Positions 1,051 through 29,650 of a stretch of DNA of 37,355 nucleotides are shown piece after piece. The notes below the pieces were generated by a model. The model saw nothing but the letters and a program-made list of their open reading frames with translations. It was not told where the DNA came from and ran no database searches. The stretch is from IMG/VR virus record IMGVR_UViG_3300037991_004413, positions 1 to 37,355 of that record; one strand, written 5' to 3'. The stretch comes from a virus. Taxonomy: Duplodnaviria > Caudoviricetes. The translations under genes were made by a program, and so were the position numbers. Numbering within the stretch: the stretch's first letter is position 1; the number at the start of each line of letters is the position of its first letter.

Positions 1051-2097
1051 ATGAGTAAATGGATAGACGAAAATAATATTTGGTGGCACACCAACAATGC
1101 TGGAGAAAGTAAAAAACTTTTACTAAACCCAGAAACTAAACAACCTTATAAAAATGGTGAGATTATACACTTAAATGGCAGAAAATTTAAAGAGTATAGA
1201 TATGATAGAATCTGGGCATCAAATATTGACTATTGGCCTATAAAGTATATGCCAGAAGCAAAAAGTTTAGATACTTACGACAAATCATACAAACTTCCAA
1301 CTCCTAGCCTAATATCTTTTTCTGGTGGCCGTACTTCGGCATACATGCTAAAAAAGATTATAGACGCATACAATGGTAAACTTCCAAAAGATGTAGTAGT
1401 CTGTTTTGCCAATACAGGAAAAGAAATGGAAGAAACTCTAGAATTTGTACATGAGTGTGAAAAAAGATGGAATGTAAAAATACACTGGTTAGAACTTGAC
1501 ATTGCCACTACCTCGCCAATCTGGAGAAGTAAAGAAGTCACATATGAAACCGCTTCTAGAAACGGCGAACCATTTGAAAAACTCATCACAAAGAAGGGCA
1601 GATTGCCTTCTCTTTACCAAAGAACTTGTACTATAGAACTTAAGATTAATACTATTAATAGGTTTATGAGAAACCTAGGATATAAAGAATGGTACTCAGC
1701 CTTAGGTTTGAGGTACGATGAACCCCGCCGAGTCTCTGATTCAAAAAAGAGCTCACAAAAGCATGTAAACATTGCTCCACTATACGAAGCAAAAGTAACC
1801 AATGAAGATGTACTAGAATATTGGAAGAATAGTCCTTTTGATTTGAAACTTCCTAGTATAAATGGGAAGACAGTTGCAGGTAACTGTGATTTGTGTTTTT
1901 TGAAAGGTACACAAACTATTTTAAATTTATTGAAAGAAAGACCTCAGTTAGCAGACTGGTGGTCAGATATAGAAACTAAACATGATTCTAAGTTTCGAAC
2001 AAATAGACCAGATTATATAAAATTAGTAGATTTATCACAGAAAGACTTTGAGACAGATTTAGATGATACACACTTTAGTTGCTTTTGTCATGACTAA
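1051..2097 (+). CDS. PAPS/APS reductase-family (CysH-like, PP-loop) protein with N-terminal extension
   Basis: ISFSGGRTS PP-loop, FANTGKE, CT.ELK, GLRYDEPRR, GNCDLCFLK and terminal SCFCHD. Confidence 0.85.
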   Translation: MSKWIDENNIWWHTNNAGESKKLLLNPETKQPYKNGEIIHLNGRKFKEYRYDRIWASNIDYWPIKYMPEAKSLDTYDKSYKLPTPSLISFSGGRTSAYMLKKIIDAYNGKLPKDVVVCFANTGKEMEETLEFVHECEKRWNVKIHWLELDIATTSPIWRSKEVTYETASRNGEPFEKLITKKGRLPSLYQRTCTIELKINTINRFMRNLGYKEWYSALGLRYDEPRRVSDSKKSSQKHVNIAPLYEAKVTNEDVLEYWKNSPFDLKLPSINGKTVAGNCDLCFLKGTQTILNLLKERPQLADWWSDIETKHDSKFRTNRPDYIKLVDLSQKDFETDLDDTHFSCFCHD

Positions 2098-2102
2098 GAT
2101 AT

Positions 2103-2149
2103 CAAAAATATTTCTTGACATTTGGTGTCAATTTTGATATAATTCAAAT
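2103..2149 (+). promoter_or_regulatory. Consensus sigma70 promoter P2
   Basis: CAAAAATATTTC-TTGACA(2115-2120), 17 bp, TATAAT(2138-2143); ATG at 2150. Confidence 0.9.
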
Positions 2150-2620
2150 ATGAGTAAAGAAATATCAACACGAATAAGTCCAGAGGGACTCGAGGTAGCT
2201 AATGCTTATCTAGAACTGGGTAATATTCCCGCTGTTTGTGCTCGTCTAAAGATTGATGAAGGAGAGTGTTCTGAAATCCTAGCTAAAAGAGAGATTAAAC
2301 AGTATGTAGACCAAGTCTATCTAGATACAGGCTATAGAAACAGATTCAAACTAGCAGAAGCACTTGACGACATCATTGACCAAAAGATGGAAGAGGCAGC
2401 TGAATCAGAAATCTATACAAATAAAGATTTGGCAGATTTAATTCAACTCGCACACAAAATGAGAATGGACGAAATGAAAGCTCAAGCAGAAATGGAAAAA
2501 GCAAAAGCAGCAAACATAAAGAATCAAACCAATGTTCAGATAAATGGTGAAGTGCCTTTTGGACAAGGCAACTATGGTCAGCTAATGAAGAAGTTACTAA
2601 AAGATGATAGAAATAACTAA
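2150..2620 (+). CDS. terS: Terminase small subunit, T5-like
   Basis: SPEGLEVANAYL...YLDTGYRNR...KMEE...AHKMRMDEMK...NVQIN matches the pattern of T5-family TerS; size ~156 aa. Confidence 0.8.
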   Translation: MSKEISTRISPEGLEVANAYLELGNIPAVCARLKIDEGECSEILAKREIKQYVDQVYLDTGYRNRFKLAEALDDIIDQKMEEAAESEIYTNKDLADLIQLAHKMRMDEMKAQAEMEKAKAANIKNQTNVQINGEVPFGQGNYGQLMKKLLKDDRNN

Positions 2621-2969
2621 TGAGGCCATCGCCAAGATTTTGGAGAAACAAGGAAAAGAAGCCTTCGACGCTATACGCCTTGGTATCACTGGTGGCGGTT
2701 GCGCTGGTTTTGAGTATATATTCGATAGCTGTAACGATAGCACTAGTACTGAAGATGTTAGATTAGACTACGGAAAGTTTGCAGTTATCATTGATAAACT
2801 TTCAGTTCCATACTTAGTAGGTATGACACTAGACTATCAAAAAGAAGGATTAAATGAAGTATTTAAATTTATAAATCCAAAAGAGACAGCTAGTTGTGGT
2901 TGTGGTGTTTCGATAAATTTTGACTTAAATAAAGTAAACCAAGACCAAATATTTGCAGTAGAACTATGA
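2604..2969 (+). CDS. iscA: A-type Fe-S cluster carrier (IscA/HesB family)
   Basis: IEITNEA, RLGITGGGCAGFEY, LDYQKEGL..FKFINP, SCGCGVS. Confidence 0.93.
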   Translation: MIEITNEAIAKILEKQGKEAFDAIRLGITGGGCAGFEYIFDSCNDSTSTEDVRLDYGKFAVIIDKLSVPYLVGMTLDYQKEGLNEVFKFINPKETASCGCGVSINFDLNKVNQDQIFAVEL

Positions 2970-3271
2970 TAGAAGAATATACCATATTTAATTTTATTAG
3001 TGATGTGGGAGCACCCATTGCAGCTGCAGTATTTATGGGTGGTTTTATATTTATTATCATACGAAAGATTATGGAAGATGTAGTAGGAAATACTGAAGAA
3101 TTAAAAGGTATTTGCAAAATGTTAGTTACTCGTATAAAAACAATGAACAACGATATGATTAGAATAGATGTAAGCGTTAGTTCTGCACTTGAACTTACAC
3201 CTGATTTAGATAGAATAGCAAGAGCAGAAAACTTTGTAGAAGATGGCACAATAGACGCACGGAGGGACTAG
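2966..3271 (+). CDS. Single-TM coiled-coil membrane protein (paralog A)
   Basis: FISDVGAPIAAAVFMGGFIFIII TM segment followed by heptad region ..MNNDMIRID; ATGA overlap with iscA. Confidence 0.75.
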   Translation: MIEEYTIFNFISDVGAPIAAAVFMGGFIFIIIRKIMEDVVGNTEELKGICKMLVTRIKTMNNDMIRIDVSVSSALELTPDLDRIARAENFVEDGTIDARRD

Positions 3272-3396
3272 TGGATTTTGCAGGTATTTGGAATGACTTA
3301 AGTTATTATGATGGTTTAATCTTTACCGTTTATCTAGGAATTGTCTACTGGTGTAAAAGCTGGATAGATGACTACTGGTGGAGGAAAAAGGATTGA
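3271..3396 (+). CDS. 41-aa Trp/Tyr-rich membrane peptide (not in ORF track)
   Basis: GTG start overlaps the upstream TAG, GGAGGG RBS at 3261; MDFAGIWNDLSYYDGLIFTVYLGIVYWCKSWIDDYWWRKKD; its TGA overlaps the next ATG (TGATG). Confidence 0.65.
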   Translation: MDFAGIWNDLSYYDGLIFTVYLGIVYWCKSWIDDYWWRKKD

Positions 3397-3692
3397 TGGA
3401 AGATATTGCTGAAATAATCCAACAGTTTGGATTTCCTATACTTGCGATGTTAGGGCTAGGATATTTTGTTTATTTTGTGTGGACTACTATAACAGAAAAG
3501 ATTGACCCTGCAACCGAAGACATGAAGATGACAGTCTTGAAGTTAATTGACCAGATAAGACTTATGGATAATGACATGATTCGCTTGCAAAAGAAACTGG
3601 ACACAGTTTTACAAATGAAAGAAAATGAACGTAAAAATAATAATAGGACTTCTATTCGCAGGGAGTCTGACAGCAGACGAGATAACTCATAA
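3396..3692 (+). CDS. Single-TM coiled-coil membrane protein (paralog B)
   Basis: Start moved to ATG 3396 (GGAGG at 3380, TGATG coupling); IIQQFGFPILAMLGLGYFVYFVW...MDNDMIRLQ parallels 2966..3271. Confidence 0.75.
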   Translation: MEDIAEIIQQFGFPILAMLGLGYFVYFVWTTITEKIDPATEDMKMTVLKLIDQIRLMDNDMIRLQKKLDTVLQMKENERKNNNRTSIRRESDSRRDNS

Positions 3693-4089
3693 GTTTAAAA
3701 ATCCTTCTTTTAGTGGGATAGGTACTGGTGCACACTATTTAACTATTGAGAATCAAGAACATGCAAGAAAGAAAGCAATCGAAGATGCACTAGAAGCTGC
3801 GCGCAAAGCTGCAGAAAGAGAAGCAGATAACTCAACACTAGCTAAGTTCATTCGTAACTTAGAATCAAGAATATATGCCCAAATGGCAAAACAATTAGTA
3901 GAAAATATGTTTTCAAACGACAACCCTGTCAGGTTTGGAAGCTTTACACTCGAAGGTAATGTAGTTACTTACGAAGTTATAACAAATGAAGACGGGAGCG
4001 AGTTTATAAGAATGACTATAGTATCATCTGATGGTACTGAAACAGTTATTGAGATTCCAATTGGAACAGGTTCGTTCGGCGGAGGATAA
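3625..4089 (+). CDS. csgF: Curli assembly protein CsgF-like
   Basis: Signal peptide, then EITHKFKNPSFSG (compare CsgF TMTFQFRNPNFGG), FIRNLESRIYAQ, terminal TVIEIP; directly upstream of csgG. Confidence 0.88.
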   Translation: MNVKIIIGLLFAGSLTADEITHKFKNPSFSGIGTGAHYLTIENQEHARKKAIEDALEAARKAAEREADNSTLAKFIRNLESRIYAQMAKQLVENMFSNDNPVRFGSFTLEGNVVTYEVITNEDGSEFIRMTIVSSDGTETVIEIPIGTGSFGGG

Positions 4090-5007
4090 ATGATTAGAGG
4101 GTTGTTAGCACTCACAATTTTATTGAGTGGTTGTGCAGCTGTTCCTAGATACAGCGAAAACCCTCAAGATTGTAACCCTGAAACATGGGAAGAAGGAGTA
4201 GACTATCCAAAAGATGTTTGGAATATAGTGAAAGCTGGAGGAAGAACATTTGAAAGAGCTATGCCCTTCATATGTGTGGAAGAGCCAGAAGTTGTAAAAC
4301 TACCGTCTTACATTGAACTACTTAACTTACCACCAGCAGAAAAGATGCCTATTGTGGCTGTATACAGTTTTGGAGACTTAACAGGTCAAAGAAAAAGTGT
4401 ACAAAACATTGCGAGTTTTAGTACTGCAGTAACACAAGGCGGAACAGAGATGTTGATTGATGCACTCAAATCTGCTGGAAACCAAACATGGTTCCGTGTA
4501 GTTGAAAGAAAAGGAATAGATCATCTTGTTCGTGAAAGACAAATCATTCGTTCAGGTAGAGAAGAAGCAGCAAAAGTGTTGGGAGAAGAAGCTCCAACAT
4601 TAGGGCCTATGCTTTTTGCAGGAATGATTATTGAAGGTGGCATTATAGGATATGATACAAATCTACTTACAGGTGGTAGAGGAGCAAGATACCTAGGAAT
4701 AGGTATGTCAAGACAATACAGACAAGACCAAGTTACTGTTAGTCTCCGAGCAGTAAGTGTACTTACAGGAGAAGTTCTTCTGAATGTACAAACTAAAAAG
4801 ACCATACTTTCGTATGGAGCTTCAGGAGACATTTTCAGGTTTATTGAAGAGGGCACCGAACTTGTAGAATACGAAGATGGTGAAGGAAATAATGAATCTG
4901 TTACTTATGCAGTACGCACAGCTATTGAAGCTGCCGTACTAGAGTTAGTCGAACAAGGACACGAAAGAGGTCTTTGGAAGATAACTGGGAGAGAGAATAA
5001 TGATTAG
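4090..5007 (+). CDS. csgG: Curli secretion outer-membrane lipoprotein CsgG
   Basis: Lipobox LSGC; VAVYSFGDLTGQRK, FSTAVTQG, WFRVVERKG.DHL.RERQII, EGGIIGYD, GGRGARYLGIG, QDQVTVSLRAVSVLTGEVL, AIEAAV. Confidence 0.95.
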   Translation: MIRGLLALTILLSGCAAVPRYSENPQDCNPETWEEGVDYPKDVWNIVKAGGRTFERAMPFICVEEPEVVKLPSYIELLNLPPAEKMPIVAVYSFGDLTGQRKSVQNIASFSTAVTQGGTEMLIDALKSAGNQTWFRVVERKGIDHLVRERQIIRSGREEAAKVLGEEAPTLGPMLFAGMIIEGGIIGYDTNLLTGGRGARYLGIGMSRQYRQDQVTVSLRAVSVLTGEVLLNVQTKKTILSYGASGDIFRFIEEGTELVEYEDGEGNNESVTYAVRTAIEAAVLELVEQGHERGLWKITGRENND

Positions 5008-5731
5008 AATATTATTAGGCCTAATTCTGATTCCATCATTTCTTTTCGCACAAGCAACTGACGACAATGAAGTTTGGATTGATCAAACAGGGGACACTCT
5101 TACATTGTATATAGACCAAATTGGATTTGGTAACAAAATTGGATTAGATGATTTTTCTGGTTCAGCAGACTATATGACAATTACTGGTGACACTCTTACA
5201 TTTGATTTAGACTTCACAGGTAATCAAAACTTACTATTTGGAACACTAGTAGCAGATACTTCTACTTTTAATTTGGATTTCACAGGAGACTCAAATGAAT
5301 TAGATTGGAATATTGGCTATATTGGTTCCTCAGATGACTCAACTTGGGATATTACTGTAACAGGTGATTCTAATACTTGGGACATCGACCAAGGGTATGT
5401 AGCAAGTGCTGAGAGATTGGATTTAGATCTTACCTTAATTGGAAGTAGCAATATTTTTGATTTGGATTTTGAAAGTGACGATAACACATGGAACTGGGAT
5501 ATTACTGGAGATTCCAATAATATTAATGTTCTTATGAACGACGGTTCAAATGAGCAGACAGTTACTTTTGTCGGAGATAGCGCAGATATCGATATTAATC
5601 AAATATCAGGTACTTGTGCAACAGGAGCAAGCAATAGCTGTTCCTCTCCAAACGGAAATATCCAATTGGATATAACATCTGACGATGCAACAATTCAGAT
5701 TAATCAAAAAGATTCAGCTAACGACAGCTAG
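5000..5731 (+). CDS. Secreted, very acidic curlin-like beta-solenoid repeat protein
   Basis: Signal peptide; DNEVWIDQTGD..LYIDQIGFGN curlin-type start; repeated (D/T)xTGDSN.(W/F)DI units; C-terminal Cys pair. Confidence 0.7.
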   Translation: MIRILLGLILIPSFLFAQATDDNEVWIDQTGDTLTLYIDQIGFGNKIGLDDFSGSADYMTITGDTLTFDLDFTGNQNLLFGTLVADTSTFNLDFTGDSNELDWNIGYIGSSDDSTWDITVTGDSNTWDIDQGYVASAERLDLDLTLIGSSNIFDLDFESDDNTWNWDITGDSNNINVLMNDGSNEQTVTFVGDSADIDINQISGTCATGASNSCSSPNGNIQLDITSDDATIQINQKDSANDS

Positions 5732-6815
5732 TCTAATGTGCGCAATAGGGTTGGCATCAGCTGACCCTATAGGCGACATAATAGAGAGCACAGGTTCAGG
5801 CTTTCTCTCAAGAAATAATGATACTATTTTATCAGCAGTAAATGTAGGAGTACAACTATATGATACTGCAGAAACTACAAATGGTAGAATGTTGATTGAG
5901 TTTTTAGATAAAGCAGAATTAGCACTAACAGAACATACTAGGGTTATAATTGATGAAATAATATATGACCCAAATCCTAATAAGTCAAAGATGGTAATGA
6001 AAATGACTTTTGGAACAGCACGATTTGCAAGTGGAATTACAGGTCAAATAAATAAAAATAACATTGACATATCCACACCAACAGCACAGATTGCAGTTCG
6101 TGGAACTAACTTCACTACTACAATAGATGAACTAGGAAGAAGTTTAGTAATACTACTACCTGATGAATTTGGCGACCCATCAGGAATAATTATAGTTAGT
6201 AATGACGCAGGAGAAGTTACACTAGATCAAGCATACGCAGCAACTATGGTATCTTCAGCAGATTCAATGCCTACTAAATCAGTAGTCATAAATGGGATAA
6301 CACCTGCTATAATTGATAATATGTTTATTGTCAATCCGCCACAAGAAATAAGACAAGAAATTGAAGAAAGTGTGCAAGTAGACCAAGATTCAGGACTATT
6401 AGATGTAGACTTTTTAGAATTTAATGAACTAGAACAAGACGCACTTAGTGATACTGAAGTAAACCTTGAATTTAGTGAACTAGATATCGATTTCTTAGAA
6501 GCAGACTTTTTAAGAGACTTGCTCGATGTCATAGAAGAATTAGAAAAGACTACAGTCAAACTAGCAGATGCACAAGCAACAAGCGGCGGAGACTTTTCAC
6601 TAAAGGGAGCAACTCTAGGTAAGAATACAGACAGCCAGTATAACATATTTGTAGAAGACGGTGGCGTCGTATTTTATAGAGATGTACAAGGAGTAATCAG
6701 AATCAGAGTACCAATCGGCAGCAGTACAAAACTTATGACTAATGTCGAAGGCTACGAAGGAATAATTGATTTAGATGGAGGAGACGATTCATTAATCGTA
6801 ATAACACAAGAATGA
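5685..6815 (+). CDS. Secreted FecR-domain protein with acidic C-terminal region
   Basis: ETTNGRMLIEFLDKAEL.L.EHTRV, GTARFASG, ISTPTAQIAVRGTNF (FecR-type motif); cleavable-looking ..LASA|DPIG. Confidence 0.85.
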   Translation: MQQFRLIKKIQLTTASLMCAIGLASADPIGDIIESTGSGFLSRNNDTILSAVNVGVQLYDTAETTNGRMLIEFLDKAELALTEHTRVIIDEIIYDPNPNKSKMVMKMTFGTARFASGITGQINKNNIDISTPTAQIAVRGTNFTTTIDELGRSLVILLPDEFGDPSGIIIVSNDAGEVTLDQAYAATMVSSADSMPTKSVVINGITPAIIDNMFIVNPPQEIRQEIEESVQVDQDSGLLDVDFLEFNELEQDALSDTEVNLEFSELDIDFLEADFLRDLLDVIEELEKTTVKLADAQATSGGDFSLKGATLGKNTDSQYNIFVEDGGVVFYRDVQGVIRIRVPIGSSTKLMTNVEGYEGIIDLDGGDDSLIVITQE

Positions 6816-7639
6816 GTAAAGGTAGTAATAGAAGACCAAGAAATATCACAGAGAAACAGTTTGAAGAAAACTGGGAAAAGATATTTGCTCGTAAAAAGAC
6901 TCCAAAACATGGAAGAACAAAAGTGCATAAAGATAAGACTAAGTATACAAGAAAGATGAAACATGATGCAGAATTAGTTGCCTTAGTTAGTATCTTTTGT
7001 ATTTCCTTACTAGGAGTTAGCCCTAATATTTCAGCAGGGCCAACAGATGATAACCATGTTCACATTGAACAAGTAAATAGTGGAGATGGTACAGACATAA
7101 TGATAAATCAAGTGGGATTTGGTAATAGTATTGAATTTTCATTTGACCATGCAAATAATATTTTTAATTTAAATCAATATGGTAACGGTAACTCAATATC
7201 TTGGGTTCCTTACTGGGGTTCTGGAAAGAGCTGGGGAGGAGATGTAGATGGTACAGGCAATAATGAAGCGGTTATCCAATATGACGGAGCAACATATGGT
7301 AGACATATTTGGGGTAACAATAATGATGTTGATATATATCAAAGTGGGTCTCACACTCACTGGTTAGATATTCATGCAGATGAAGTTGAACACGAAGTAT
7401 GGCAAGAAGGAGCAGGAAGTCATTATAGTCATGTTTACTACTATGGTAATACTGATGGCTCAATCTCTGACATAGAGCAAAAAGGTGATGCAAATCATAA
7501 TATACAACTTACTATTCAAGGTTCTTATGCAACTACATTGAATTTATCTCAGTTGGGAAATACAGCACAATCTTACAGTATAACACATAGTTGTTTCACT
7601 GTCGGAGGCTGCACAGTAAATGTGAGCCAAGGAAACTAA
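6812..7639 (+). CDS. Curlin-like (CsgA/CsgB-type) repeat protein with a basic N-terminal extension
   Basis: DNHVHIEQ..IMINQVGFGNSI, NLNQYGNGN, NNEAVIQ, NNDVDIYQSG, DIEQKGDANH, NLSQLGN; C-terminal C-x5-C; hydrophobic signal at aa ~54-75. Confidence 0.75.
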   Translation: MSKGSNRRPRNITEKQFEENWEKIFARKKTPKHGRTKVHKDKTKYTRKMKHDAELVALVSIFCISLLGVSPNISAGPTDDNHVHIEQVNSGDGTDIMINQVGFGNSIEFSFDHANNIFNLNQYGNGNSISWVPYWGSGKSWGGDVDGTGNNEAVIQYDGATYGRHIWGNNNDVDIYQSGSHTHWLDIHADEVEHEVWQEGAGSHYSHVYYYGNTDGSISDIEQKGDANHNIQLTIQGSYATTLNLSQLGNTAQSYSITHSCFTVGGCTVNVSQGN

Positions 7640-7640
7640 T

Positions 7641-7787
7641 ATGCCAGTAAGAAAAGTAAAAGGCGGATATAAATGGGGCAAGTCTGGAAAGACTTACAAG
7701 ACTAAAAAGGCAGCAGAGCGCCAAGGTAGAGCAATCTACGCGTCAGGATATAAAAATGGCAAGAGGAAGAAAAAGAAGAAGAAGTAG
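7641..7787 (+). CDS. 48-aa highly basic protein (not in ORF track)
   Basis: MPVRKVKGGYKWGKSGKTYKTKKAAERQGRAIYASGYKNGKRKKKKKK; starts 1 nt after the upstream stop. Confidence 0.75.
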   Translation: MPVRKVKGGYKWGKSGKTYKTKKAAERQGRAIYASGYKNGKRKKKKKK

Positions 7788-7944
7788 AGCTAAAACCAAA
7801 AGGAATATACCTACTAATTCAAAACTATATGCAAGAGTGAAAGCAGCAACTAAAAGAAAATTTGCTGTTTATCCAAGTGCATATGCGAACGCTTGGTTAG
7901 TACGAGAGTACAAGAAGCGAGGAGGGAAGTATCGTCGTGGCTAA
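7756..7944 (+). CDS. Highly basic protein (possibly DUF5872-like N-terminal half)
   Basis: PTNSKLYARVK...YPSAYA...LVREYKKRGGKY. Confidence 0.75.
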   Translation: MARGRKRRRSRAKTKRNIPTNSKLYARVKAATKRKFAVYPSAYANAWLVREYKKRGGKYRRG

Positions 7945-8098
7945 GAGAAAGAAACTTACAAAGAGACAAACAAAAGCTTTAGCTAGACATCGTCGTCATC
8001 ACACGAAAAAGCACATGGCATTTATGAGAGCTCAAATGAGAAAAGGTAAAACTTTTACTCAAGCTCATAGAGCTGCCATGAAAAAGGTAGGAAGATAA
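7937..8098 (+). CDS. 53-aa basic His-rich protein (not in ORF track)
   Basis: GTG start with GGAGGG at 7921; MAKRKKLTKRQTKALARHRRHHTKKHMAFMRAQMRKGKTFTQAHRAAMKKVGR; TAATG overlap with the next gene. Confidence 0.75.
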   Translation: MAKRKKLTKRQTKALARHRRHHTKKHMAFMRAQMRKGKTFTQAHRAAMKKVGR

Positions 8099-8385
8099 TG
8101 GCTAGAGGCGGATTAGGCAAGTGGTTTGGAGAAAGATGGGTAGATATCTCTAGACCGAAGAAAGGCGGAGGCTACAAATCTTGTGGCAGAAGAAAAGCAG
8201 GAAAAGGTGGATATCCAAAATGTGTTCCTGCTGCAAAAGCTGCAAGAATGAGCAAGAAACAAATTAAATCAGCTGTTCGTAGAAAACGAGCAAAGAAACA
8301 AGGTGTAGGCGGGAGACCGACTAATGTAAAAACCTTTGTTAGAAGAAGGAGAAGAAATGGCCGTGCGAAGAAAAACTCGAGGTAG
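8098..8385 (+). CDS. Highly basic protein (possibly DUF5872-like C-terminal half)
   Basis: GLGKWFGERWVDI...CGR...YPKCVP...KSAVRRKR. Confidence 0.8.
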   Translation: MARGGLGKWFGERWVDISRPKKGGGYKSCGRRKAGKGGYPKCVPAAKAARMSKKQIKSAVRRKRAKKQGVGGRPTNVKTFVRRRRRNGRAKKNSR

Positions 8386-8668
8386 AAAAAGAGACCCACG
8401 ATTAAAAAGAGCTGGAGTTTCTGGATATAATAAACCAAAAAGAACTCCAAAGCACAGAACTAAATCTCACATAGTTGTTGCAAAGGTAGGAAATAGAATA
8501 AAAACTATTCGATTTGGACAACAAGGAGCAAAGACTGCTGGTAAACCAAAGAAAGGTGAATCAGAGAGAATGAAAAAGAAAAGAGCTTCATTCAAAGCAA
8601 GACACAGAAAGAATATAGCGAAAGGCAAAATGTCTGCAGCTTACTGGGCAAATAGAGTAAAATGGTAA
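8357..8668 (+). CDS. Highly basic protein (possibly DUF6321/DUF5754-like)
   Basis: Start moved to ATG 8357 (AGGAGA at 8347); KTIRFGQQG...SFKARH...SAAYWANRVKW. Confidence 0.8.
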   Translation: MAVRRKTRGRKRDPRLKRAGVSGYNKPKRTPKHRTKSHIVVAKVGNRIKTIRFGQQGAKTAGKPKKGESERMKKKRASFKARHRKNIAKGKMSAAYWANRVKW

Positions 8669-9090
8669 GATTATTACTATTATTTTTATCTTTTCCAGTC
8701 TTTGCTGACTTAGACTTGACTCTCCCACAAGAGTTTGATTATGAACAAATGAAAAGAGATTCAAGAATGATAAAAGATTGGGAAGATAGAAATAATCTTA
8801 GATTTTGGGATAATGAACCTTATCCTTCTAAAGAGCAGATAAGATATTCTTGGAGAATACATGCTCTTGATATGATTACTACTATATATGCTTTAGAGAA
8901 TAGAGATACTATAAAAGAAGCAAACTGGGTACTCGGAGAAGAACCTGAAATGCATGAAGTAGTAGCATTAAAATTGTTAGTGCTACCTTTTTTACATCAA
9001 AATTCAAATGAGCATATGATGGTATATTTTAACGCAGTAACTACAGCTACTGTTATAAATAATTTATATGTAATAAATAAATATGATTAG
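8662..9090 (+). CDS. Exported or membrane hypothetical protein
   Basis: Signal peptide MVRLLLLFLSFPVFA; overlaps both neighbours. Confidence 0.7.
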   Translation: MVRLLLLFLSFPVFADLDLTLPQEFDYEQMKRDSRMIKDWEDRNNLRFWDNEPYPSKEQIRYSWRIHALDMITTIYALENRDTIKEANWVLGEEPEMHEVVALKLLVLPFLHQNSNEHMMVYFNAVTTATVINNLYVINKYD

Positions 9091-10864
9091 ACTACTAATA
9101 GCAATACTTAGTATCGGACTTTTTGTCTGGAACCCTTATCCTTTCAAAATACTAGAACTTCAAACATTCGATTGGCTTATGAAAACACAGCCCGAAGTTC
9201 AAAATCAAAATATAGTACTCGTCGATCTTGACGAGGAAATCGTAGAGGCATATGGAGGATATCCATTACCTCGCACACTTTACTCAGATATGATGGATAG
9301 AGTCTCGGGTGTACCGGGATTCACTATCCTCATGCCTGACCCAGACATAAGAGATAAAGAAAATGATTTATATCTGTCAAGAAGTATGGCAGATAAACCA
9401 ACTGTGTTAGCTTTTGCAGCTTCAACACAAGCAGATGAGCTTGGACCTCATGTAGGTAGTGCTCAAATAGGAGGTGATCCATCAGAATGGCTATTACAGT
9501 ATCCAGGAATTTTAAGACAAACACCAATATTATCCATCAGCGCAGAAGGCAAAGGTGTAGTAAATTCAAGAAGCGAAATAGACGGAATCGTAAGGCGCGC
9601 TCCGGTCGTCGTAAGTAGTGCAGGAAAAGTATTTCCTAGTTTTGGGCTTGAAATGTTAAGACTAGCAACAGGAGATAAAAGCTACCAAATAAAAACTGGA
9701 GAGTACGGAGTAGAGTGGGTAAGAATACCAGCATATGGTAAGATGAGTACTGATGCAAATGGAAATATTTGGATTAGCACTAATGTAAAATTTTACAGAC
9801 AATCTGCGTCAGAGTTTATGGAGAATCCAATACAGGCACCTTTTGTAATTTTTGGTGTAACTGCAGAAGGAGTATCAAACCCAGTTCCTACGGCTTCTGG
9901 ACCAAAATATCCACATGAAATACAAGCAAACATATTACACAATTTAATAGAAGGAAAAGCGCCTTCAGTTCCAAACTGGAGTGCTGGAGCAGAGCTAGGA
10001 GCTGCAGTTCTAGCTTTGCTACTTTTATTCCTAACTGCAAGTAGAGTATATTTAAGTTTTCCTACTTTAGCACTAGTATTAGGAGGTTCGGTCTACGGCG
10101 CCTGGTATGCGTTTCAATCTTCCTATTTGTTTGACGTTTCTGGTATCGTAATTATCTCCATACTTTTTTGGAGTATCGAAAGTTTCAGGAATTTTATGAA
10201 GACCTATTTCGAGAAAATGGAAATTAAACGACAATTTGGGACGTATGTTAGTCCTGCCTTGGTTAAAAAATTACAAAATGACCCATCATTACTGAGATTG
10301 GGTGGGGAGACAAAACGACTAACATTTCTTTTTTCTGATATTCGAGGATTCACACCAATTTCAGAAAAATATCAAAAAAATCCTCAAGGACTCACAGAAC
10401 TTATTAATAGATTCCTTGACAATCAAACACAAATTATATTAAAACATGGTGGTACAATCGATAAATATATGGGAGATTGTATCATGGCATTTTGGGGAGC
10501 ACCACTTGATGATGAGAACCAGGTGGAGAATGCAACCAAGGCGGTTCTTGAGATGAGAGAATCGTTGGAGGAACTTAATGAAAGACTCAGAGAAGAAGGC
10601 CTGGATCAAATTAATACAGGAGCGGGAATCAACACCGGTCTCTGCGTGGTGGGAAACTTCGGTAGCTCGAATAGGTTTGACTATAGTGTTCTTGGTGATA
10701 GCGTTAATCTTGCAGCAAGGTTAGAATCTAGTTGCAAAGAGTATGATACTAGTCTTATCATATCTGAATACAGTATGATTGACGGATACGACTACAAATT
10801 CTTAGATGAAGTTACGGTCAAGGGCAAATCAGAACCAGTTAAAATCTACACCATTGAAAAATAG
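9083..10864 (+). CDS. CHASE2-domain class III adenylate cyclase
   Basis: N-terminal TM; CHASE2 motifs (IVLVDLDEE, YPLPR, DGIVRR.P, PSFGLE, EIQANIL); 3 TM; cyclase motifs LFSDIRGFT, DKYMGDCIMAFWGAP, GINTG, FDYSVLGDSVNLAARLE, VKGK. Confidence 0.95.
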   Translation: MIRLLIAILSIGLFVWNPYPFKILELQTFDWLMKTQPEVQNQNIVLVDLDEEIVEAYGGYPLPRTLYSDMMDRVSGVPGFTILMPDPDIRDKENDLYLSRSMADKPTVLAFAASTQADELGPHVGSAQIGGDPSEWLLQYPGILRQTPILSISAEGKGVVNSRSEIDGIVRRAPVVVSSAGKVFPSFGLEMLRLATGDKSYQIKTGEYGVEWVRIPAYGKMSTDANGNIWISTNVKFYRQSASEFMENPIQAPFVIFGVTAEGVSNPVPTASGPKYPHEIQANILHNLIEGKAPSVPNWSAGAELGAAVLALLLLFLTASRVYLSFPTLALVLGGSVYGAWYAFQSSYLFDVSGIVIISILFWSIESFRNFMKTYFEKMEIKRQFGTYVSPALVKKLQNDPSLLRLGGETKRLTFLFSDIRGFTPISEKYQKNPQGLTELINRFLDNQTQIILKHGGTIDKYMGDCIMAFWGAPLDDENQVENATKAVLEMRESLEELNERLREEGLDQINTGAGINTGLCVVGNFGSSNRFDYSVLGDSVNLAARLESSCKEYDTSLIISEYSMIDGYDYKFLDEVTVKGKSEPVKIYTIEK

Positions 10865-10867
10865 TAC

Positions 10868-10896
10868 TTGACTTTTGAGCATAGTTTTGATATAAT
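10868..10896 (+). promoter_or_regulatory. Sigma70 promoter P3
   Basis: TTGACT(10868-10873), 17 bp, TATAAT(10891-10896), right after the cyclase stop. Confidence 0.85.
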
Positions 10897-10946
10897 TACA
10901 CCATAACGAAAATAAAATTTTCAAGAATCAACAAGGAAAAACCGAA

Positions 10947-11171
10947 GTGGACAAAGATGTACAGAAAAACACGGCAGATATCGCAGACCTAGACAAAAGA
11001 ATGTCTAGTCATGAAGCCATGTGTGAGGAAAGATGGAAGACTTGTTTTAACCGCTTCGATAACATGGATTCCTCAGTAGGCAGATTAGAGTCAATTTTAA
11101 TAGCAGCGTCAGGAAGCTTAATAGTGGGTGGAGCAGTATTAATATTGACAATGTGGAACATTCATGTATAG
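10947..11171 (+). CDS. Coiled-coil protein with C-terminal TM (XhlA/holin-like architecture)
   Basis: HEAMCEERW coiled coil, then LIAASGSLIVGGAVLILTMW; AAGGA RBS. Confidence 0.65.
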   Translation: MDKDVQKNTADIADLDKRMSSHEAMCEERWKTCFNRFDNMDSSVGRLESILIAASGSLIVGGAVLILTMWNIHV

Positions 11172-11180
11172 GAGAAAACA

Positions 11181-11357
11181 ATGGAACTAGAATACGATAA
11201 AAAAGATATAAAGAAAACACCAAAAGTAAAAAAAGTAGTAAAGAAGGAAGGTGTGTATAAAGAAGGAGACGTATGGTGTTTCGACTCAGGAAAACATCAC
11301 TACTGTTTTACTACTAAAGAAAATGCGGAGATTGCTTATGACAGAGAAGTTGGATAA
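11181..11357 (+). CDS. 58-aa hypothetical protein (not in ORF track)
   Basis: AGGAGA RBS at 11170; MELEYDKKDIKKTPKVKKVVKKEGVYKEGDVWCFDSGKHHYCFTTKENAEIAYDREVG. Confidence 0.7.
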   Translation: MELEYDKKDIKKTPKVKKVVKKEGVYKEGDVWCFDSGKHHYCFTTKENAEIAYDREVG

Positions 11358-11541
11358 AAAAGAGTTTGTCTCAGGATATGATACTATGCCTGATGTAGAG
11401 GATTTAGAAAAAATAGTAGATAAAGAACTTGAGAAATTAGAAGAAAATCCCGCAGTACCAAACAGACAAAAACTAATGCTTGCAAAGAAAAAGAGATTAC
11501 TAAGACAGAGGAGACAAGTTATTCCACGTTCTCTTAGATGA
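11338..11541 (+). CDS. Hypothetical protein, acidic N-half and basic C-half
   Basis: Start moved to ATG 11338 (GCGGAG upstream); MTEKLDKKEF...RQRRQVIPRSLR. Confidence 0.65.
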   Translation: MTEKLDKKEFVSGYDTMPDVEDLEKIVDKELEKLEENPAVPNRQKLMLAKKKRLLRQRRQVIPRSLR

Positions 11542-12423: not shown

Positions 12424-12660
12424 ATGCTAAAAAATCAAATTGACTTAAGACTAGTATGGCTCGATGAAGCAGCTATAACCAGTGGTAAAGTTGTGGATAA
12501 AATTTCAGCAAAAGAAGTTCTCGGGCAAAAGCTAACACCTGTAGAAACTGAGTACGCCAAAGTTTGTGGTGCGTACCTCTATCTTCTAAAGTTAGCTAAA
12601 GATAGCAATTTGCTAGTGGAAAAAGACGAAGTACTAACTAGATACGAGACAATACATTGA
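12424..12660 (+). CDS. Hypothetical protein upstream of terL
   Basis: 78 aa; stop overlaps the terL TTG start. Confidence 0.65.
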   Translation: MLKNQIDLRLVWLDEAAITSGKVVDKISAKEVLGQKLTPVETEYAKVCGAYLYLLKLAKDSNLLVEKDEVLTRYETIH

Positions 12661-13958
12661 TTGAAGTAAGTAGAAAAGATGTAGAGTCCAGTTACCTAAT
12701 GAACTTCGATTCAGAAGATAGATTCATTAAACTTCCTATAAATGGCTATATGGACTTGTTAGGTATTCAACCTAATTCTAGTCAATCAGCTATAATTAAT
12801 GCTATCAACAATCCAAAGTATAGATTTGTTTGTGCCGCTATCGCTAGAAGGCAAGGCAAAACCTATATATCAAATATAATAGGACAGTTAGTGTGTCTAG
12901 TACCTAACAGTCATGTTCTATTAATGTCACCAAATTATTCTTTATCACAAATATCATTTGACTTACAAAGAAATCTTATTAAGCACTTTGATTTAGAAGT
13001 GATAAGAGATAATGCAAAAGATAAAGTAATAGAACTAAGTAATAACTCTACTATAAGAATGGGATCAATCAATCAAGTTGATTCAGTAGTTGGTAGAAGT
13101 TATGATTTAATAATTTTTGACGAAGCGGCGTTGACAGACGGCCGAGATGCCTTCAATGTCGCGCTTCGTCCTACACTAGACAAAGACAACTCAAAAGCAA
13201 TATTTATTTCTACGCCTCGTGGCAGAAATAATTATTTTGCAGAGTTTTACTACAGAGGATATAATAATGAATTTCCAGAGTGGGCAAGTATAAAAGCAAC
13301 TTGGCATGAAAATCCTCGTGTATCTGAAGAAGATATTTCAGAAGCTAAAAAGACGATGTCGGAGAATGAGTTTGCTCAAGAGTATTTGGCAGACTTTAAT
13401 GTTTACGAGGGTCAGATATGGGCGTTCAATTATGAACGTTGTGTCGCTGATCTTAGTCAGTTTGATACTAGTAAGATGGACGTATTTGCTGGTCTCGATG
13501 TGGGTTACAAAGATCCTACAGCATTTTGTGTTATAGCATATGATTGGGACGAGCAAAAGTTTTATTTAGTTGATGAATATCTAGATTCAGAAAGAACAAC
13601 AGAACAACACGCAGTAGAAATAAATAAATTAATTAAAAAATGGGATATAGATTTTATCTATATAGATTCTGCTGCACAGCAAACTCGATTTGATTTTGCA
13701 CAAAATTATGATATAACAACCATAAATGCTAAGAAGTCAGTATTAGATGGTATTGGTCATGTAGCAGGTATAGTCGACAATGATAATCTTATAGTAGATC
13801 AACAATGTCAACAGGCTATATCTTGTTTAGACCAATATCAGTGGGACCCAAACCCTAATCTGATGAAAGAGAGACCGAAACATGATGGAGCATCGCACAT
13901 GGCAGATGCTATAAGATATGCACTATATACATTCGAAACTACAGCCACCTCGTTCTAA
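12657..13958 (+). CDS. terL: Terminase large subunit, T5-like
   Basis: Walker A ARRQGKT, Walker B LIIFDE, FISTPRG, QEYLADF, nuclease GLDVGYKDPTA and HMADAIRYA. Confidence 0.95.
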   Translation: MIEVSRKDVESSYLMNFDSEDRFIKLPINGYMDLLGIQPNSSQSAIINAINNPKYRFVCAAIARRQGKTYISNIIGQLVCLVPNSHVLLMSPNYSLSQISFDLQRNLIKHFDLEVIRDNAKDKVIELSNNSTIRMGSINQVDSVVGRSYDLIIFDEAALTDGRDAFNVALRPTLDKDNSKAIFISTPRGRNNYFAEFYYRGYNNEFPEWASIKATWHENPRVSEEDISEAKKTMSENEFAQEYLADFNVYEGQIWAFNYERCVADLSQFDTSKMDVFAGLDVGYKDPTAFCVIAYDWDEQKFYLVDEYLDSERTTEQHAVEINKLIKKWDIDFIYIDSAAQQTRFDFAQNYDITTINAKKSVLDGIGHVAGIVDNDNLIVDQQCQQAISCLDQYQWDPNPNLMKERPKHDGASHMADAIRYALYTFETTATSF

Positions 13959-13968
13959 CAATACCTGT

Positions 13969-14009
13969 CAAAAATATATCTTGACATTTGGTGTAGAATT
14001 AGGTATAAT
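13969..14009 (+). promoter_or_regulatory. Consensus sigma70 promoter P4 (head operon)
   Basis: CAAAAATATATC-TTGACA(13981-13986), 17 bp, TATAAT(14004-14009). Confidence 0.9.
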
Positions 14010-14027
14010 TCATATTAAGAGTTAGAT

Positions 14028-15602: not shown

Positions 15603-15890
15603 ATGACTAAAAACATGATGTTAAAAGCTTTGCAAGATTTTTTCGTAGAGAAAAAAGTTGATACTATGTCTCTTGCAGAGTACAAAGGTTATGGTAGTGA
15701 GGTTCCTGTTAAGGATTATATGCTTAGAAGAGCATATGGTTCTTGGAGTAGAGTCTTATCCGTAGCAAAACACAGACATCCGATTGAAGTTCCTGTTGTC
15801 GAGGCTCCTGTTGTTGAGGAAAAGGTTGTTAAAAAAACACCTGCTCCAAAACCAAAGGCTAAGAAAGAGGTAAGTAAAGATGTCGAATAA
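15603..15890 (+). CDS. Hypothetical protein with RRAYGSW motif and Lys/Pro-rich tail
   Basis: Occupies the slot between portal and protease; GAGGA RBS. Confidence 0.65.
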   Translation: MTKNMMLKALQDFFVEKKVDTMSLAEYKGYGSEVPVKDYMLRRAYGSWSRVLSVAKHRHPIEVPVVEAPVVEEKVVKKTPAPKPKAKKEVSKDVE

Positions 15891-17937
15891 AACTAAAATT
15901 TTTCACTGGACTAATACATTCAAAACTTTGGGTGAAACCGAAGATGGTGGCGTTGATATTAAAGGTTCTGCGAGTACAAATGCACTAGACAGAGCTGGTG
16001 ATATAATCGAAGCAGGAGCTTGGACAAAAGGTGGATTGGATAACTTTAGTAGTAATCCAATAATACTTTTTAACCATGATTATAATAGACCAATAGGTAA
16101 AGCCACAGGTTTAGATGTTACAAACGACGGTCTTGAAATATCCGCAAGGATATCTAAAGCAGCCGGAGATGTAAAAGAATTAGTGAAGGACGGTGTTCTT
16201 GGAGCCTTTTCCGTTGGTTTCAGAGTCAAGGACGCTGATTATATGTCAGAAACTGACGGATATAAAATCAAGGACGCAGAGTTATTCGAAGTGTCCGTCG
16301 TATCTGTTCCCTGCAATCAAGGGGCTACTTTTTCAGTAGCAAAATCTTTTGATAGTATGGAAGACTACGATAAATTCAAAAAGCAATTTATAAAGGCTAA
16401 CTCAGAAGAAACAGCAGACGCTGTGAAAGTTGAGCAGCCAAGCGGGGAGAAATCCCAAAAAATGGAGACTGATATGTCAGAAGAAATGAAGACTCCTGAA
16501 AGCAACTTCGACTTAGAGAAGCAAGCTAATGAATTAGCTGAAAAAGCTATTGCTAAGTTTGCAATGCAACAAGCCGAAGAAAAAGCAGCAAAAGAAGCAG
16601 CAGAAGCTGAAGCCGCTGAGAAAGCAGCTAAAGTCGAAGCTGAAGAAAAGGCTGCTCAAGAAGCTAAGCAGGAAGAACAGAAAACTATTGTTCAAGCAGG
16701 ATTATCAGGCGCTGAAAGACTCATGGAAGATGTTGAGAAAAGAGTTCTCGATAAGCATGAAGACTTAAAAGAAGTTGTAGACTCATTAGAGAAGCAACTT
16801 GCTGAAAAGTCAGAAGAAATCATGAATATCAGAGAATCAAAAAGAATTTTCTCAGATAGAACAGGTCAAGGCGACTGGAAGAAAGCTTTTGAGCAAGACA
16901 TTGTTGACGCAAAATTTGCTGGTTTAGCGACTGGTAAAGGTTGGGACAACGACTACGCAAAATCAGTAATGCAAAAGGTAAATCAACACTCAGGTATTGA
17001 TGTATCCTCAGCAGACTTTGAGCAAATCGTTTCAACAAATGTCGAAAGAGACATTCAGAATGAATTGGTATTAGCACCTCTATTTAGAGAAATTCCAATG
17101 ACTTCTGCAAACATGATTATACCAATCCTACCAGATGCCGGTTACGCTGAGTTTACAGGTAACGCACAGGCTTCAGGTTCAGCCCCTCATGGTAACTTAG
17201 ACCCAAGAGGTGACGCATATGATCCTGCAAATGGTGCTGGTATTGTTATGACTGAAAGAACTCTTTCAACCAAAAAATTAATATCTCAATCATACTTAGG
17301 TAATGAGACAGAAGAAGATGCAATTATGCCAATACTTCCTTTAATTAGAGAGTCAATGGTAAGATCTCACGCAAGAGCTATGGAAAATGCTATCCTAGCT
17401 GGTGACGATGCTGATGGTGCTTTTGGTACTTCAGGTGCAGCTTTTGAAGGTTTATTACACCTAGCAAGAAACGACTCAGACTTTACACAGTCCTCAACTG
17501 CATTTGCAAGTGATACTGTTACAGCAGCTGAGTTACTCGGGTTGAGAAAGAACATGGGTAAATATGGTGTAAACCCAAGTGAAGTAGTTTATATTGTTTC
17601 ACAAACAGTTTACTTCCAGTTACTAGAAGATGCAGAGTTCCAAGATGCTAACCTAGTTGGTGACTTGGCAACCAAAATCAATGGTGAAATTGGTCAAGTG
17701 TATGGCTCAAGAGTCCTACTCTGTGATGAATTTGCAGCACCAGCAACTTCTAAGTTCGCAGCAATCGCTGTTAACCCAAGAAACTTTGTAATGCCAAGAT
17801 TAAGAGGCGTTACAGTTGAGTCAGACTACGAAGTAGCAAACCAAAGAAGAGTCCTAGTGGCTTCACAAAGAATCGGATTTACCGATCTTATCGATGGTGC
17901 AACTTCTAAGTGGGCATACATGTATAAAGCTAGCTAA
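15880..17937 (+). CDS. Prohead protease - scaffold - HK97-fold major capsid protein (single ORF)
   Basis: Protease motifs G.AST..DRAGD, ILFNHD, FSVGF, ELFEVSVVSVP; E/A/K-rich coiled coil; capsid domain ending RVLVASQRIGF. Confidence 0.93.
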   Translation: MSNKTKIFHWTNTFKTLGETEDGGVDIKGSASTNALDRAGDIIEAGAWTKGGLDNFSSNPIILFNHDYNRPIGKATGLDVTNDGLEISARISKAAGDVKELVKDGVLGAFSVGFRVKDADYMSETDGYKIKDAELFEVSVVSVPCNQGATFSVAKSFDSMEDYDKFKKQFIKANSEETADAVKVEQPSGEKSQKMETDMSEEMKTPESNFDLEKQANELAEKAIAKFAMQQAEEKAAKEAAEAEAAEKAAKVEAEEKAAQEAKQEEQKTIVQAGLSGAERLMEDVEKRVLDKHEDLKEVVDSLEKQLAEKSEEIMNIRESKRIFSDRTGQGDWKKAFEQDIVDAKFAGLATGKGWDNDYAKSVMQKVNQHSGIDVSSADFEQIVSTNVERDIQNELVLAPLFREIPMTSANMIIPILPDAGYAEFTGNAQASGSAPHGNLDPRGDAYDPANGAGIVMTERTLSTKKLISQSYLGNETEEDAIMPILPLIRESMVRSHARAMENAILAGDDADGAFGTSGAAFEGLLHLARNDSDFTQSSTAFASDTVTAAELLGLRKNMGKYGVNPSEVVYIVSQTVYFQLLEDAEFQDANLVGDLATKINGEIGQVYGSRVLLCDEFAAPATSKFAAIAVNPRNFVMPRLRGVTVESDYEVANQRRVLVASQRIGFTDLIDGATSKWAYMYKAS

Positions 17938-28937: not shown

Positions 28938-29650
28938 TGGCAACATTTAGTAATTTTACAGATAGATTACCAGATCCAAACTGGACAATAAGTGCCGCAG
29001 GTGACGGGCATGCTAGTAGTTATACTGCTGGACCAGGTTTCAAGACAGTAAAATTCACTAGTGAGCAACCAACTTCGATATCAAGAACAAATAGTGGAAG
29101 AGTGATAACTCGAGCAATAGTAGGACAGAGGTGGAAAATTTCTATAACATACAATCCAATGACTCGTGCGGAGTTCGAGCCCGTATACAATTTTTTATTA
29201 GAGAAGCGTGGTAGACTAAAGCCATTCTTCGTTAAATTACCGCAACATAGTCCTCAAACATCAACTTCATCAGCATATACAATTCAAGGGCCAGTATCTG
29301 CTGGAGCGGATAATTTATTAGTAACTGTCGCAGCCTCAGGAGCAAATTTAGCTGTAGGCGATACTTTTACGATAACAGACAGTCAAAATTCAAATCACAA
29401 AAAACTTTATCAAATAGTAAGAGTCGCAGACTCTTCAAATAAATTAAGTTCTGATTCAGCACTTAATTTAGCTACTGAAAGAAGGTTGTATATACACCCA
29501 CCACTTCAATCAAGTGTAACTAATGGTTCCACATTGAGCTATGCAACTCCTTTAATAAGAGTAATCTCTACCTCAGATGTAAGAGAGTATAGTCTTGGAA
29601 CAAATAACTTATACAACTTTTCTCTGAGTTTAGAGGAGGCTCTTCCCTAA
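28937..29650 (+). CDS. Distal tail protein (T5 pb9-like)
   Basis: RLPDP, GPGF..V, NSGR, W.ISITYNPMTR.EF; follows the tape measure gene (TAATG overlap). Confidence 0.85.
   Translation: MATFSNFTDRLPDPNWTISAAGDGHASSYTAGPGFKTVKFTSEQPTSISRTNSGRVITRAIVGQRWKISITYNPMTRAEFEPVYNFLLEKRGRLKPFFVKLPQHSPQTSTSSAYTIQGPVSAGADNLLVTVAASGANLAVGDTFTITDSQNSNHKKLYQIVRVADSSNKLSSDSALNLATERRLYIHPPLQSSVTNGSTLSYATPLIRVISTSDVREYSLGTNNLYNFSLSLEEALP

Follow-up and report, generated by a model that had tools for sequence, protein, structure and literature searches.

A curli-type secretion, FecR-fold and CHASE2 cyclase cassette between the terminase genes of a T5-like phage: a candidate envelope-spanning sensor

Why should a tailed phage encode, in one run of genes, a curli-type outer-membrane pore, a FecR-fold protein and a CHASE2 adenylate cyclase? 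The question is raised by the IMG/VR record IMGVR_UViG_3300037991_004413 (Duplodnaviria; Caudoviricetes), whose whole stretch of 37,355 nucleotides (nt) is called the window here; coordinates are window positions and all genes of the run lie on the + strand. The initial annotation had read the run at 2966-10864 as a candidate trans-envelope signalling system. Our tentative answer, held with somewhat less than even confidence, is that the cassette may be an envelope-spanning sensor converting the condition of a pore or fibre made by the phage into cyclic AMP (cAMP); we favour it over an uncoupled fibre and cyclase, a lysis timer and an uptake device.

All open reading frames (ORFs) named in that annotation were found at their positions, and Pfam backs CsgF and CsgG (Table 1), FecR (E 7.4e-8), CHASE2 (E 1.3e-28) and Guanylate_cyc (E 3.6e-20), every match being past its curated cut-off. 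The run is overlapping or abutting, as described, once two ORFs of 41 amino acids (aa; 3271-3396) and 48 aa (7641-7787) are included. Co-occurrence was determined in sets of loci anchored on CsgG (54 loci, 35 of them extending 6 kb or more downstream and 42 extending 2 kb or more upstream), on the cyclase (80 loci, 34 with at least 7 kb upstream) and on terL (80 loci, 9 with at least 7 kb upstream); the sets are not independent and each is ranked by likeness to the window. Curlin-like protein 1 (curlin 1), FecR and the cyclase were each found in 34/35 CsgG-anchored loci, the sole miss (L053) beginning inside csgG with its upstream side out of view, while csgF, csgG, fecR and curlin 1 were present in all 34 cyclase-anchored loci; the predicted association of cyclase and FecR genes with csgFG holds from both sides. 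On the upstream side CsgF was present in 42/42 CsgG-anchored loci, and the two small single-transmembrane (TM) proteins TM1 and TM2 in 41/42 and 42/42. The terL-anchored loci carry CsgG, FecR and cyclase in 8/9 cases, L119 being without them. The pore genes are divergent from the cyclase in four cyclase-anchored loci (L205, L207, L227 and L236) and divergent cassette halves occur in L051 and L054 too; that co-occurrence persists in such split cassettes speaks against plain hitch-hiking. In the one pair compared, the window and L004, dN/dS was 0.02-0.14 for the core genes and 0.30 for the 142-aa exported ORF. The cassette genes are real, intact, conserved and under purifying selection.

A cassette of this kind has been described before. 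The available text of PMC9599517 (2022) places it in pelagiphages, that is, phages of SAR11, belonging to the Podoviridae and Myoviridae, and reports its transfer from one family to another; there one or two 'histidine kinases' (HK) come before CsgF, CsgG and CsgA/B, and after them come FecR, in many cases another curlin, and the adenylate cyclase. Its GOV2 survey gave all hits to Myoviridae or Podoviridae by best BLAST hit, and T5-like copies may lie concealed in that set. The suggestion that the full module was undescribed in a T5-like siphovirus therefore fails for the module itself and stands for the carrier, as a literature search reaching few subscription journals found no T5-like or siphovirus carrier; it found nothing on the host of this phage. 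The annotation was right that HTVC008M carries csgF and csgG, and the whole cassette is present there (NC_020484 gp011-gp019) and in Melnitz (MZ577097 genes 97-104), with all its genes in matching order: csgF, csgG and a curlin-repeat gene are adjacent as in PMC9599517, and homologues of the small genes before them and of fecR, the second curlin and the cyclase after them stand at the same positions in the window. Identities between the window and HTVC008M are 45% for TM1, 42% for TM2, 39% for CsgF, 51% for CsgG, 29% for curlin 1, 39% for FecR and 36% for the cyclase. The window differs from the pelagiphage cassette in lying between terS and terL of a T5-like phage, in having five basic ORFs and an exported ORF inserted before the cyclase, and in that the T5-like cyclases form a clade of their own. 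In the Melnitz record (L056, MZ577097), positions 8719-11513 are annotated with two curlin-repeat proteins and a FecR protein, contrary to the statement in the available text of PMC9004378 that csgA and csgB are missing from Melnitz.

The downstream genes of the window are of T5 type, namely terminase, portal, fused protease-capsid, p143, terminator, tail tube, p140, a 1633-aa tape measure and pb9, and no tail-sheath match was found among the 31 window proteins scanned. Comparison of terL with cultured phages gave about 48% identity for the best 25 of 1320 records, with matches such as Slocum, phi 3, My1 and phiR2-01, which we take to be T5-like phages. The T5-type (Demerecviridae) morphogenesis genes and terminase are present, as judged on a 37-kb record only, and by its gene content the carrier is a T5-like long-tailed phage, not a podovirus or myovirus as for the published pelagiphage cassette. 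In 8/9 relatives with enough flank, terS and terL enclose the cassette. Since an estimated 2000 or so IMG/VR stretches match window-type terL patterns, the T5-like clade carrying the cassette seems common in IMG/VR. Seven marine metatranscriptome runs share 5-12% of the window's sampled words, and contigs from four runs align, differing little, to portions of csgG, curlin 1, curlin 2 and the cyclase; such contigs cannot tell whether, from which strand or at what level the genes are transcribed.

Analysis of the secretion genes indicated that the pair typical of curli (type VIII) secretion, a CsgG lipoprotein pore and CsgF, is present. In bacterial curli the secreted subunits, built from repeats of about 23 aa (N-x-hydrophobic-x-hydrophobic-x-Q), form amyloid fibres. 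The phage shares with bacterial curli CsgG and CsgF, and it has predicted beta-solenoids with a signal peptide and N/Q positions; on the contrary, no match to csgE, csgC or csgD was found among the cassette genes, and the curlin repeats are degenerate, curlin-like proteins 1 and 2 scoring 16.9 and 15.8 bits against Curlin_rpt, both under the 20.7 cut-off. Curlin 2 of the relative L062 passes this cut-off with E 8.5e-16. The curlin 1 model is a beta-solenoid with GxxN arcs every 22-32 residues, in whose degenerate central repeats Gln is replaced by hydrophobic residues; a degenerate repeat class with hydrophobics for Gln is described, with the curli repeat architecture, in the available part of PMC10192328. 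The best match of the model was CsgA 8c50 (Z 16.4, root-mean-square deviation (rmsd) 8.9, 192 aligned), tied with a SufBD-type solenoid (Z 15.9), while Foldseek at E <= 0.001 gave no match for this model or for that of the FecR protein. Curlin 2 is present in 26 of the 35 CsgG-anchored loci that reach 6 kb or more downstream; its basic piece (6812-6955, phrog_2701) is in frame with curlin 2 in the window and likewise in L004, L008 and L057, and is a separate small ORF near terS in L001, L084 and L089.

The FecR protein, according to its model, is composed of an N-domain (about 27-213), an acidic low-confidence linker (211-302; 92 residues, 29% D/E) and a C-terminal beta domain. Its N-terminus is signal-peptide-like and no segment passes the hydropathy threshold, that is, it has no membrane anchor. 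Pfam and fold searches place the periplasmic fold of FecR-type regulators in it; the cytoplasmic anti-sigma domain is absent, and neither an extracytoplasmic function (ECF) sigma factor nor a TonB-dependent transducer was among the cassette's Pfam matches. As far as its domains can tell, the protein is not an anti-sigma factor. A structure search with the model gave Z of at least 5 for only 3 of 48,161 chains: PupR (14.8), BDI_1681 (12.7) and 5IX9 (10.8). Residues 57-213 align with PupR (6OVM; rmsd 2.8, 136 aligned) and residues 26-126 with 5IX9 (rmsd 2.2, 72 aligned), which in the available text of PMC5550230 is RIN, the periplasmic plug that holds the Marinomonas adhesin MpIBP in the TolC pore. 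The modelled N-domain thus resembles an adhesin's periplasmic pore plug, a fold likeness that shows no function, and the order of folded domain, extended linker and beta domain recalls a pore-retained tether. MpIBP differs in being a type I substrate held in TolC, whereas the phage protein is exported by Sec, has no anchor and is far smaller; PupR, a FecR cell-surface signalling domain, belongs to a membrane-anchored anti-sigma regulator. No usable match was obtained for residues 296-376 against the Atlas. The C-domain was considered as a curlin repeat for its similar terminal IxIxQ strand, seen by eye, and this was rejected, the curlin/FecR profile comparison not being significant (probability 1.2%). 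A scan of genome contigs with the FecR alignment found 13 loci, 11 with further cassette genes, in metagenome bins of unrelated phyla; we read them as binned phage contigs and draw no host from them.

The catalytic domain of class III cyclases is defined by two metal-binding Asp, by Lys with Asp, Thr or Ser for adenine, and by Asn with Arg for the transition state. The window cyclase keeps D419, K461, D465, S535, N542 and R546, the residues of a class III adenylate cyclase, and all six are intact in 9/9 T5-like copies; these residues predict the use of ATP, and thus an adenylate cyclase. Its best solved match is CyaB (E 2.9e-39). Of the three membrane segments expected after CHASE2, two passed the threshold of the hydropathy scan, as did the N-terminal one; the third is assumed from the family. 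At the positions of S535 and N542, 7 of the 32 compared cyclases (e.g. L017:6591-8633 and L023:13497-15533) have Asp and Ser; they form a long-branch clade including Melnitz, and their activity or specificity may differ.

We asked whether the parts share one history in 32 loci with full-length TM1, CsgG, curlin 1, FecR and cyclase, duplicates removed, nine of which have terL in view. Pairwise-distance correlations, which are descriptive because pairs are not independent, were 0.85-0.87 among CsgG, curlin 1 and both FecR domains and 0.47-0.61 between CHASE2 and these. A single branch sets the nine T5-like cyclases apart in the CHASE2 tree (a quick tree, SH-aLRT 98) and in the catalytic-domain tree (99). 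On the contrary, the CsgG and FecR trees showed the window, L001, L004 and L008 nested among 18 loci without a T5 terL in view, and a single T5-like clade was rejected for CsgG (p-AU 1.4e-5) and FecR (p-AU 2.7e-8). Several of these 18 loci (L023, L031, L136) have head, clamp and clamp-loader genes as neighbours, which we presume to be T4-type. Because the T5-like clade is rejected for CsgG and FecR and seen for the cyclase, the trees indicate that phage lineages exchanged the csgG-curlin1-fecR block and kept their cyclase; the trees are unrooted, and the direction was likely into the window's sub-lineage. This exchange extends the cross-family transfer reported in the available text of PMC9599517.

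The annotation had placed the run behind promoter P2, which stands, except that P2 first reaches terS and the IscA-like gene; the run is therefore not a stand-alone operon and has its promoter in common with a packaging gene. A scan of the window found perfect TTGACA-17-TATAAT sites at 1016, 2115 and 13981 and an 11/12 match at 10868, that is, 4 nt past the cyclase stop at 10864, as noted from the start. These four sigma-70-type sites belong to a single 55-nt repeat family with an extended A/T-rich motif in common (1005-1059, 2104-2158, 10857-10911, 13970-14024). Only these four stand out, since the total of 67 promoter-like sites is near chance (56.7 +/- 6.3 in shuffles). The site at 13981, of the same type as P2, precedes the portal, capsid and tail genes. 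Only some 6 nt separate the -10 hexamer from the start codon at P1 and P2, which suggests leaderless messages.

A chain of steps can be put forward in which these parts act together. As the P2 motif is common to the promoter before the portal, capsid and tail genes, the cassette would be transcribed from P2 with the packaging genes and expressed late. CsgG and CsgF, by homology, would form an outer-membrane pore secreting the Sec-exported curlin-like solenoids, and the FecR-fold protein would be an accessory of this pore or fibre, its N-domain kept in the periplasm. CHASE2 would then sense the presence or position of that N-domain and tune the predicted ATP-specific cyclase, and cAMP might, as a guess, act on a host receptor and adjust the infected cell with respect to surface contact, superinfection or lysis timing. 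The coupling of pore and cyclase is inferred from their co-occurrence in 34/34 cyclase-anchored loci and from bacterial FecR-CHASE2 pairs. Of 401 genomes from the class of G001, nine match CsgF, from which G001 (a bin with phage-like contigs) and G208 (under the cut-off) were set aside. In the remaining seven, 4/9 FecR matches lie within 3 kb of a CHASE2 match. In one of these four pairs the CHASE2 match is a 91-aa fragment; in the other three the CHASE2 receptor is complete, its output differs from pair to pair, and a component of the outer envelope is present. Of these three, one has a TpsB/ShlB pore next to a CHASE2-EAL protein and a FecR protein whose linker is of low complexity, another has a FecR-OmpA fusion accompanying a CHASE2 kinase, and the last has FecR and OmpA with CHASE2-SpoIIE. 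The same seven genomes, unlike the phage cassette, have no FecR or CHASE2 in the csgF neighbourhood; the phage cassette joins two bacterial modules that are separate in these genomes.

These pairs and the Sinorhizobium meliloti NsrA-CyaK/CyaD1/CyaD2-Clr cascade resemble the cassette in that an exported FecR protein adjoins a CHASE2 receptor of the inner membrane and a component of the outer envelope goes with them. NsrA itself carries a FecR domain. In the available text of PMC7529298 a Sinorhizobium outer-membrane receptor signals via inner-membrane cyclases. The phage differs in that its outer component is CsgG/curli, not a beta-barrel receptor, TpsB pore or OmpA domain, and in that no Crp-like receptor is encoded in the cassette. 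A more specific form of the sensor, which we regard as rather unlikely, would have the FecR C-domain thread out via the ungated CsgG into the curlin fibre, with the linker spanning the pore and the RIN-like N-domain remaining periplasmic, so that the CHASE2 cyclase reads pull, release or capture.

Several observations count against a coupled sensor. FecR distances follow those of CsgG and curlin 1 (0.85) more than those of CHASE2 (0.61), and adjacency alone could explain this. FecR domains only 50% identical to that of the window accompany T5-like cyclases whose CHASE2 identity is 69-72%, so the pairing is not tightly specific, and the block exchange likewise argues against a tightly specific FecR-CHASE2 interface. 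As for a cAMP receptor, a cNMP-binding domain was found in 0/5 related T5-like records, four of them less than 90% complete. In L119 the 0.7 kb in view just before the 74-aa gene, the cyclase site of its relatives, holds no cyclase. In the accessible text of PMC9004378 no clumping was seen in Melnitz infections, and in that of PMC5498481 the Sinorhizobium FecR-domain gene near cyaD1 was dispensable for perceiving the tested signal. Prediction of a complex between CHASE2 (17-302) and the FecR domain (27-232) scored 0.00, which is no answer and has no weight either way.

The alternative that survives best, unlikely in our judgement, is that two co-inherited functions are uncoupled, a curli-type fibre with FecR as its accessory serving aggregation or shielding and a cyclase raising cAMP in answer to its own cue. 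The exchange of the outer block past a stationary cyclase and the separation of FecR/CHASE2 from csgF in the seven bacterial genomes agree with it, and aggregation and shielding are proposed in the available texts of PMC9599517 and PMC7029224; on the contrary, all 34 cyclase-anchored loci examined have the pore genes along with the cyclase, rearranged loci included, and pairs of FecR and CHASE2 recur in bacteria.

The small membrane pair bears on a further reading. TM1 and TM2 are paralogous, as first noted, both matching phrog_18771, and are probably, from their position, the 'HK' genes of PMC9599517 as its available text lists them. A sensor histidine kinase has a phospho-accepting His in a HisKA domain and, besides, an ATPase domain; TM1 and TM2 have about 100 aa and 0 His each, and among 32 aligned family members no conserved His column was present and no HisKA or HATPase match at E <= 1 was found. 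Having neither histidine nor kinase-domain match, they are, on this evidence, not histidine kinases. The nearest named look-alikes of TM2 are the YvrJ (0.87) and BhlA holin (0.85) clusters, both under the 0.9 threshold for leads, and YvrJ matched with E 0.026 at best, in 3/32 alignment members. It is quite improbable, though consistent with these look-alikes, with a TM pair in 41-42/42 loci and with a location among packaging genes behind a structural-gene-type promoter, that a holin-like pair and CsgG/CsgF as a gated outer-membrane pore act in lysis, the cyclase timing or reporting it, in line with the pinholin/secretin idea in the available part of PMC9004378. The matches stay under the lead threshold, the conserved curlin-like subunits are not accounted for, and the TM pair, found in 30/34 cyclase-anchored loci, is out of view in the other four, and in several more it lies downstream on the opposite strand. 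Discussions of phage curli genes have covered sibling capture, uptake and lysis control (PMC7029224, PMC9004378, in their available texts). Very improbable is import of cofactors or iron complexes through the ungated pore with FecR/CHASE2 sensing them, as proposed in the available text of PMC9599517: the absence of a CsgE gate among the cassette's Pfam matches, an IscA-like Fe-S gene often beside the cassette and a uroporphyrinogen decarboxylase (URO-D) gene inside that of L017 fit it, but the FecR protein lacks both a membrane anchor and a cytoplasmic anti-sigma part, the cassette has no TonB-dependent receptor, and the curlins are unexplained. The URO-D gene lies between curlin 2 and the cyclase (L017:5657-6595).

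The basic proteins, which had been counted as part of the module, do not belong to it: they were found in 0/27 non-T5 cassette loci, they change position and order near terL among T5-like relatives, and one of them is present in 22/22 terL loci, including L119, L134 and L135 without a cyclase in view. On these grounds the basic ORFs belong to the phage backbone; we guess that they are DNA-condensing virion proteins. Weak 29% matches to one basic ORF occur on the opposite strand in seven near-identical cassette loci only. A role as the cassette's ligand, comparable to the basic uL2 signal for NsrA, was considered and rejected on the same counts. The 142-aa exported ORF had no match in L006, L008 and L009 and belongs to no known family; its counts in non-T5 loci were dropped because the profile had taken in two antisense ORFs.

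The positions of the features are collected in Table 1. Around them, a PAPS-reductase-family gene lies behind P1 (1051-2097) and the IscA/HesB-like gene behind terS, the prohead protease and major capsid protein form a single 685-aa ORF (15880-17937), and an open-ended ORF of at least 2568 aa (29650-37353) after the distal tail gene is probably a central tail or fibre protein. No tRNA or tmRNA was found in the window. In L119, a T5-like locus with 80% terL identity, six ORFs at 1442-4571 lie downstream of the 74-aa gene; several look secreted, none has a Pfam match past cut-off, and the run is possibly another surface-structure cassette.

Table 1. Features of the gene run and its flanks in the window
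Feature	Position	Strand	Evidence or remark
Promoter P2, TTGACA-17-TATAAT at 2115-2143	2104..2158	+	One of four related; upstream of terS, IscA-like gene and cassette
Terminase small subunit (flank, phage backbone)	2150..2620	+	phrog_3802, E 8e-40
IscA/HesB-like Fe-S protein	2604..2969	+	PF01521; often beside cassette, position variable
TM1, 101 aa, single-pass, polar tail after TM, no His	2966..3271	+	phrog_18771, hydropathy; 45% to HTVC008M gp011
41-aa hydrophobic ORF, accessory, between TM1 and TM2	3271..3396	+	
TM2, TM1 paralogue, no His	3396..3692	+	phrog_18771; weak YvrJ/BhlA holin-like look-alikes (lead only)
CsgF	3625..4089	+	PF10614, E 2.8e-14
CsgG lipoprotein pore subunit, lipobox ending Cys15	4090..5007	+	PF03783, E 4.5e-55; solved CsgG, E 7e-50
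Curlin-like protein 1: signal peptide, acidic beta-solenoid, GxxN arcs	5000..5731	+	Model, pLDDT 80.8
Exported FecR-fold protein, no membrane anchor	5685..6815	+	PF04773, model, fold searches
Curlin-like protein 2, signal peptide from ~6956	6812..7639	+	Basic N-terminal piece matches phrog_2701; optional in cassette
Five small Lys/Arg-rich ORFs, 36-42% K+R	7641..8668	+	T5-like backbone genes, not conserved cassette members
142-aa exported protein, no known family	8662..9090	+	Variable, dN/dS 0.30
CHASE2, membrane segments and class III nucleotidyl cyclase, predicted adenylate cyclase	9083..10864	+	
Promoter P3	10868..10896	+	Upstream of 74-aa membrane protein and genes leading to terL
Terminase large subunit (flank)	12657..13958	+	Best cultured matches T5-like, ~48%

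What is new here is the location between terS and terL, the block swap, the membrane pair without His, the basic ORFs as backbone and the likeness of the FecR protein to a plug. Two labels are corrected, in that the 'HK' genes would not encode kinases and the FecR protein would not be an anti-sigma factor. These additions are modest and narrow the experiments without settling function. The cassette was already known and widespread in ocean phages; the window adds a third virion type, the T5-like one, and its trees give the outer block and the cyclase separate histories. If the FecR protein were indeed a plug and tether read by the CHASE2 cyclase, phages of three unrelated marine lineages would equip the infected cell to sense contact or force and to report crowding or superinfection as cAMP, and the outer block of this sensor would be swappable between phage families while the cyclase stays.

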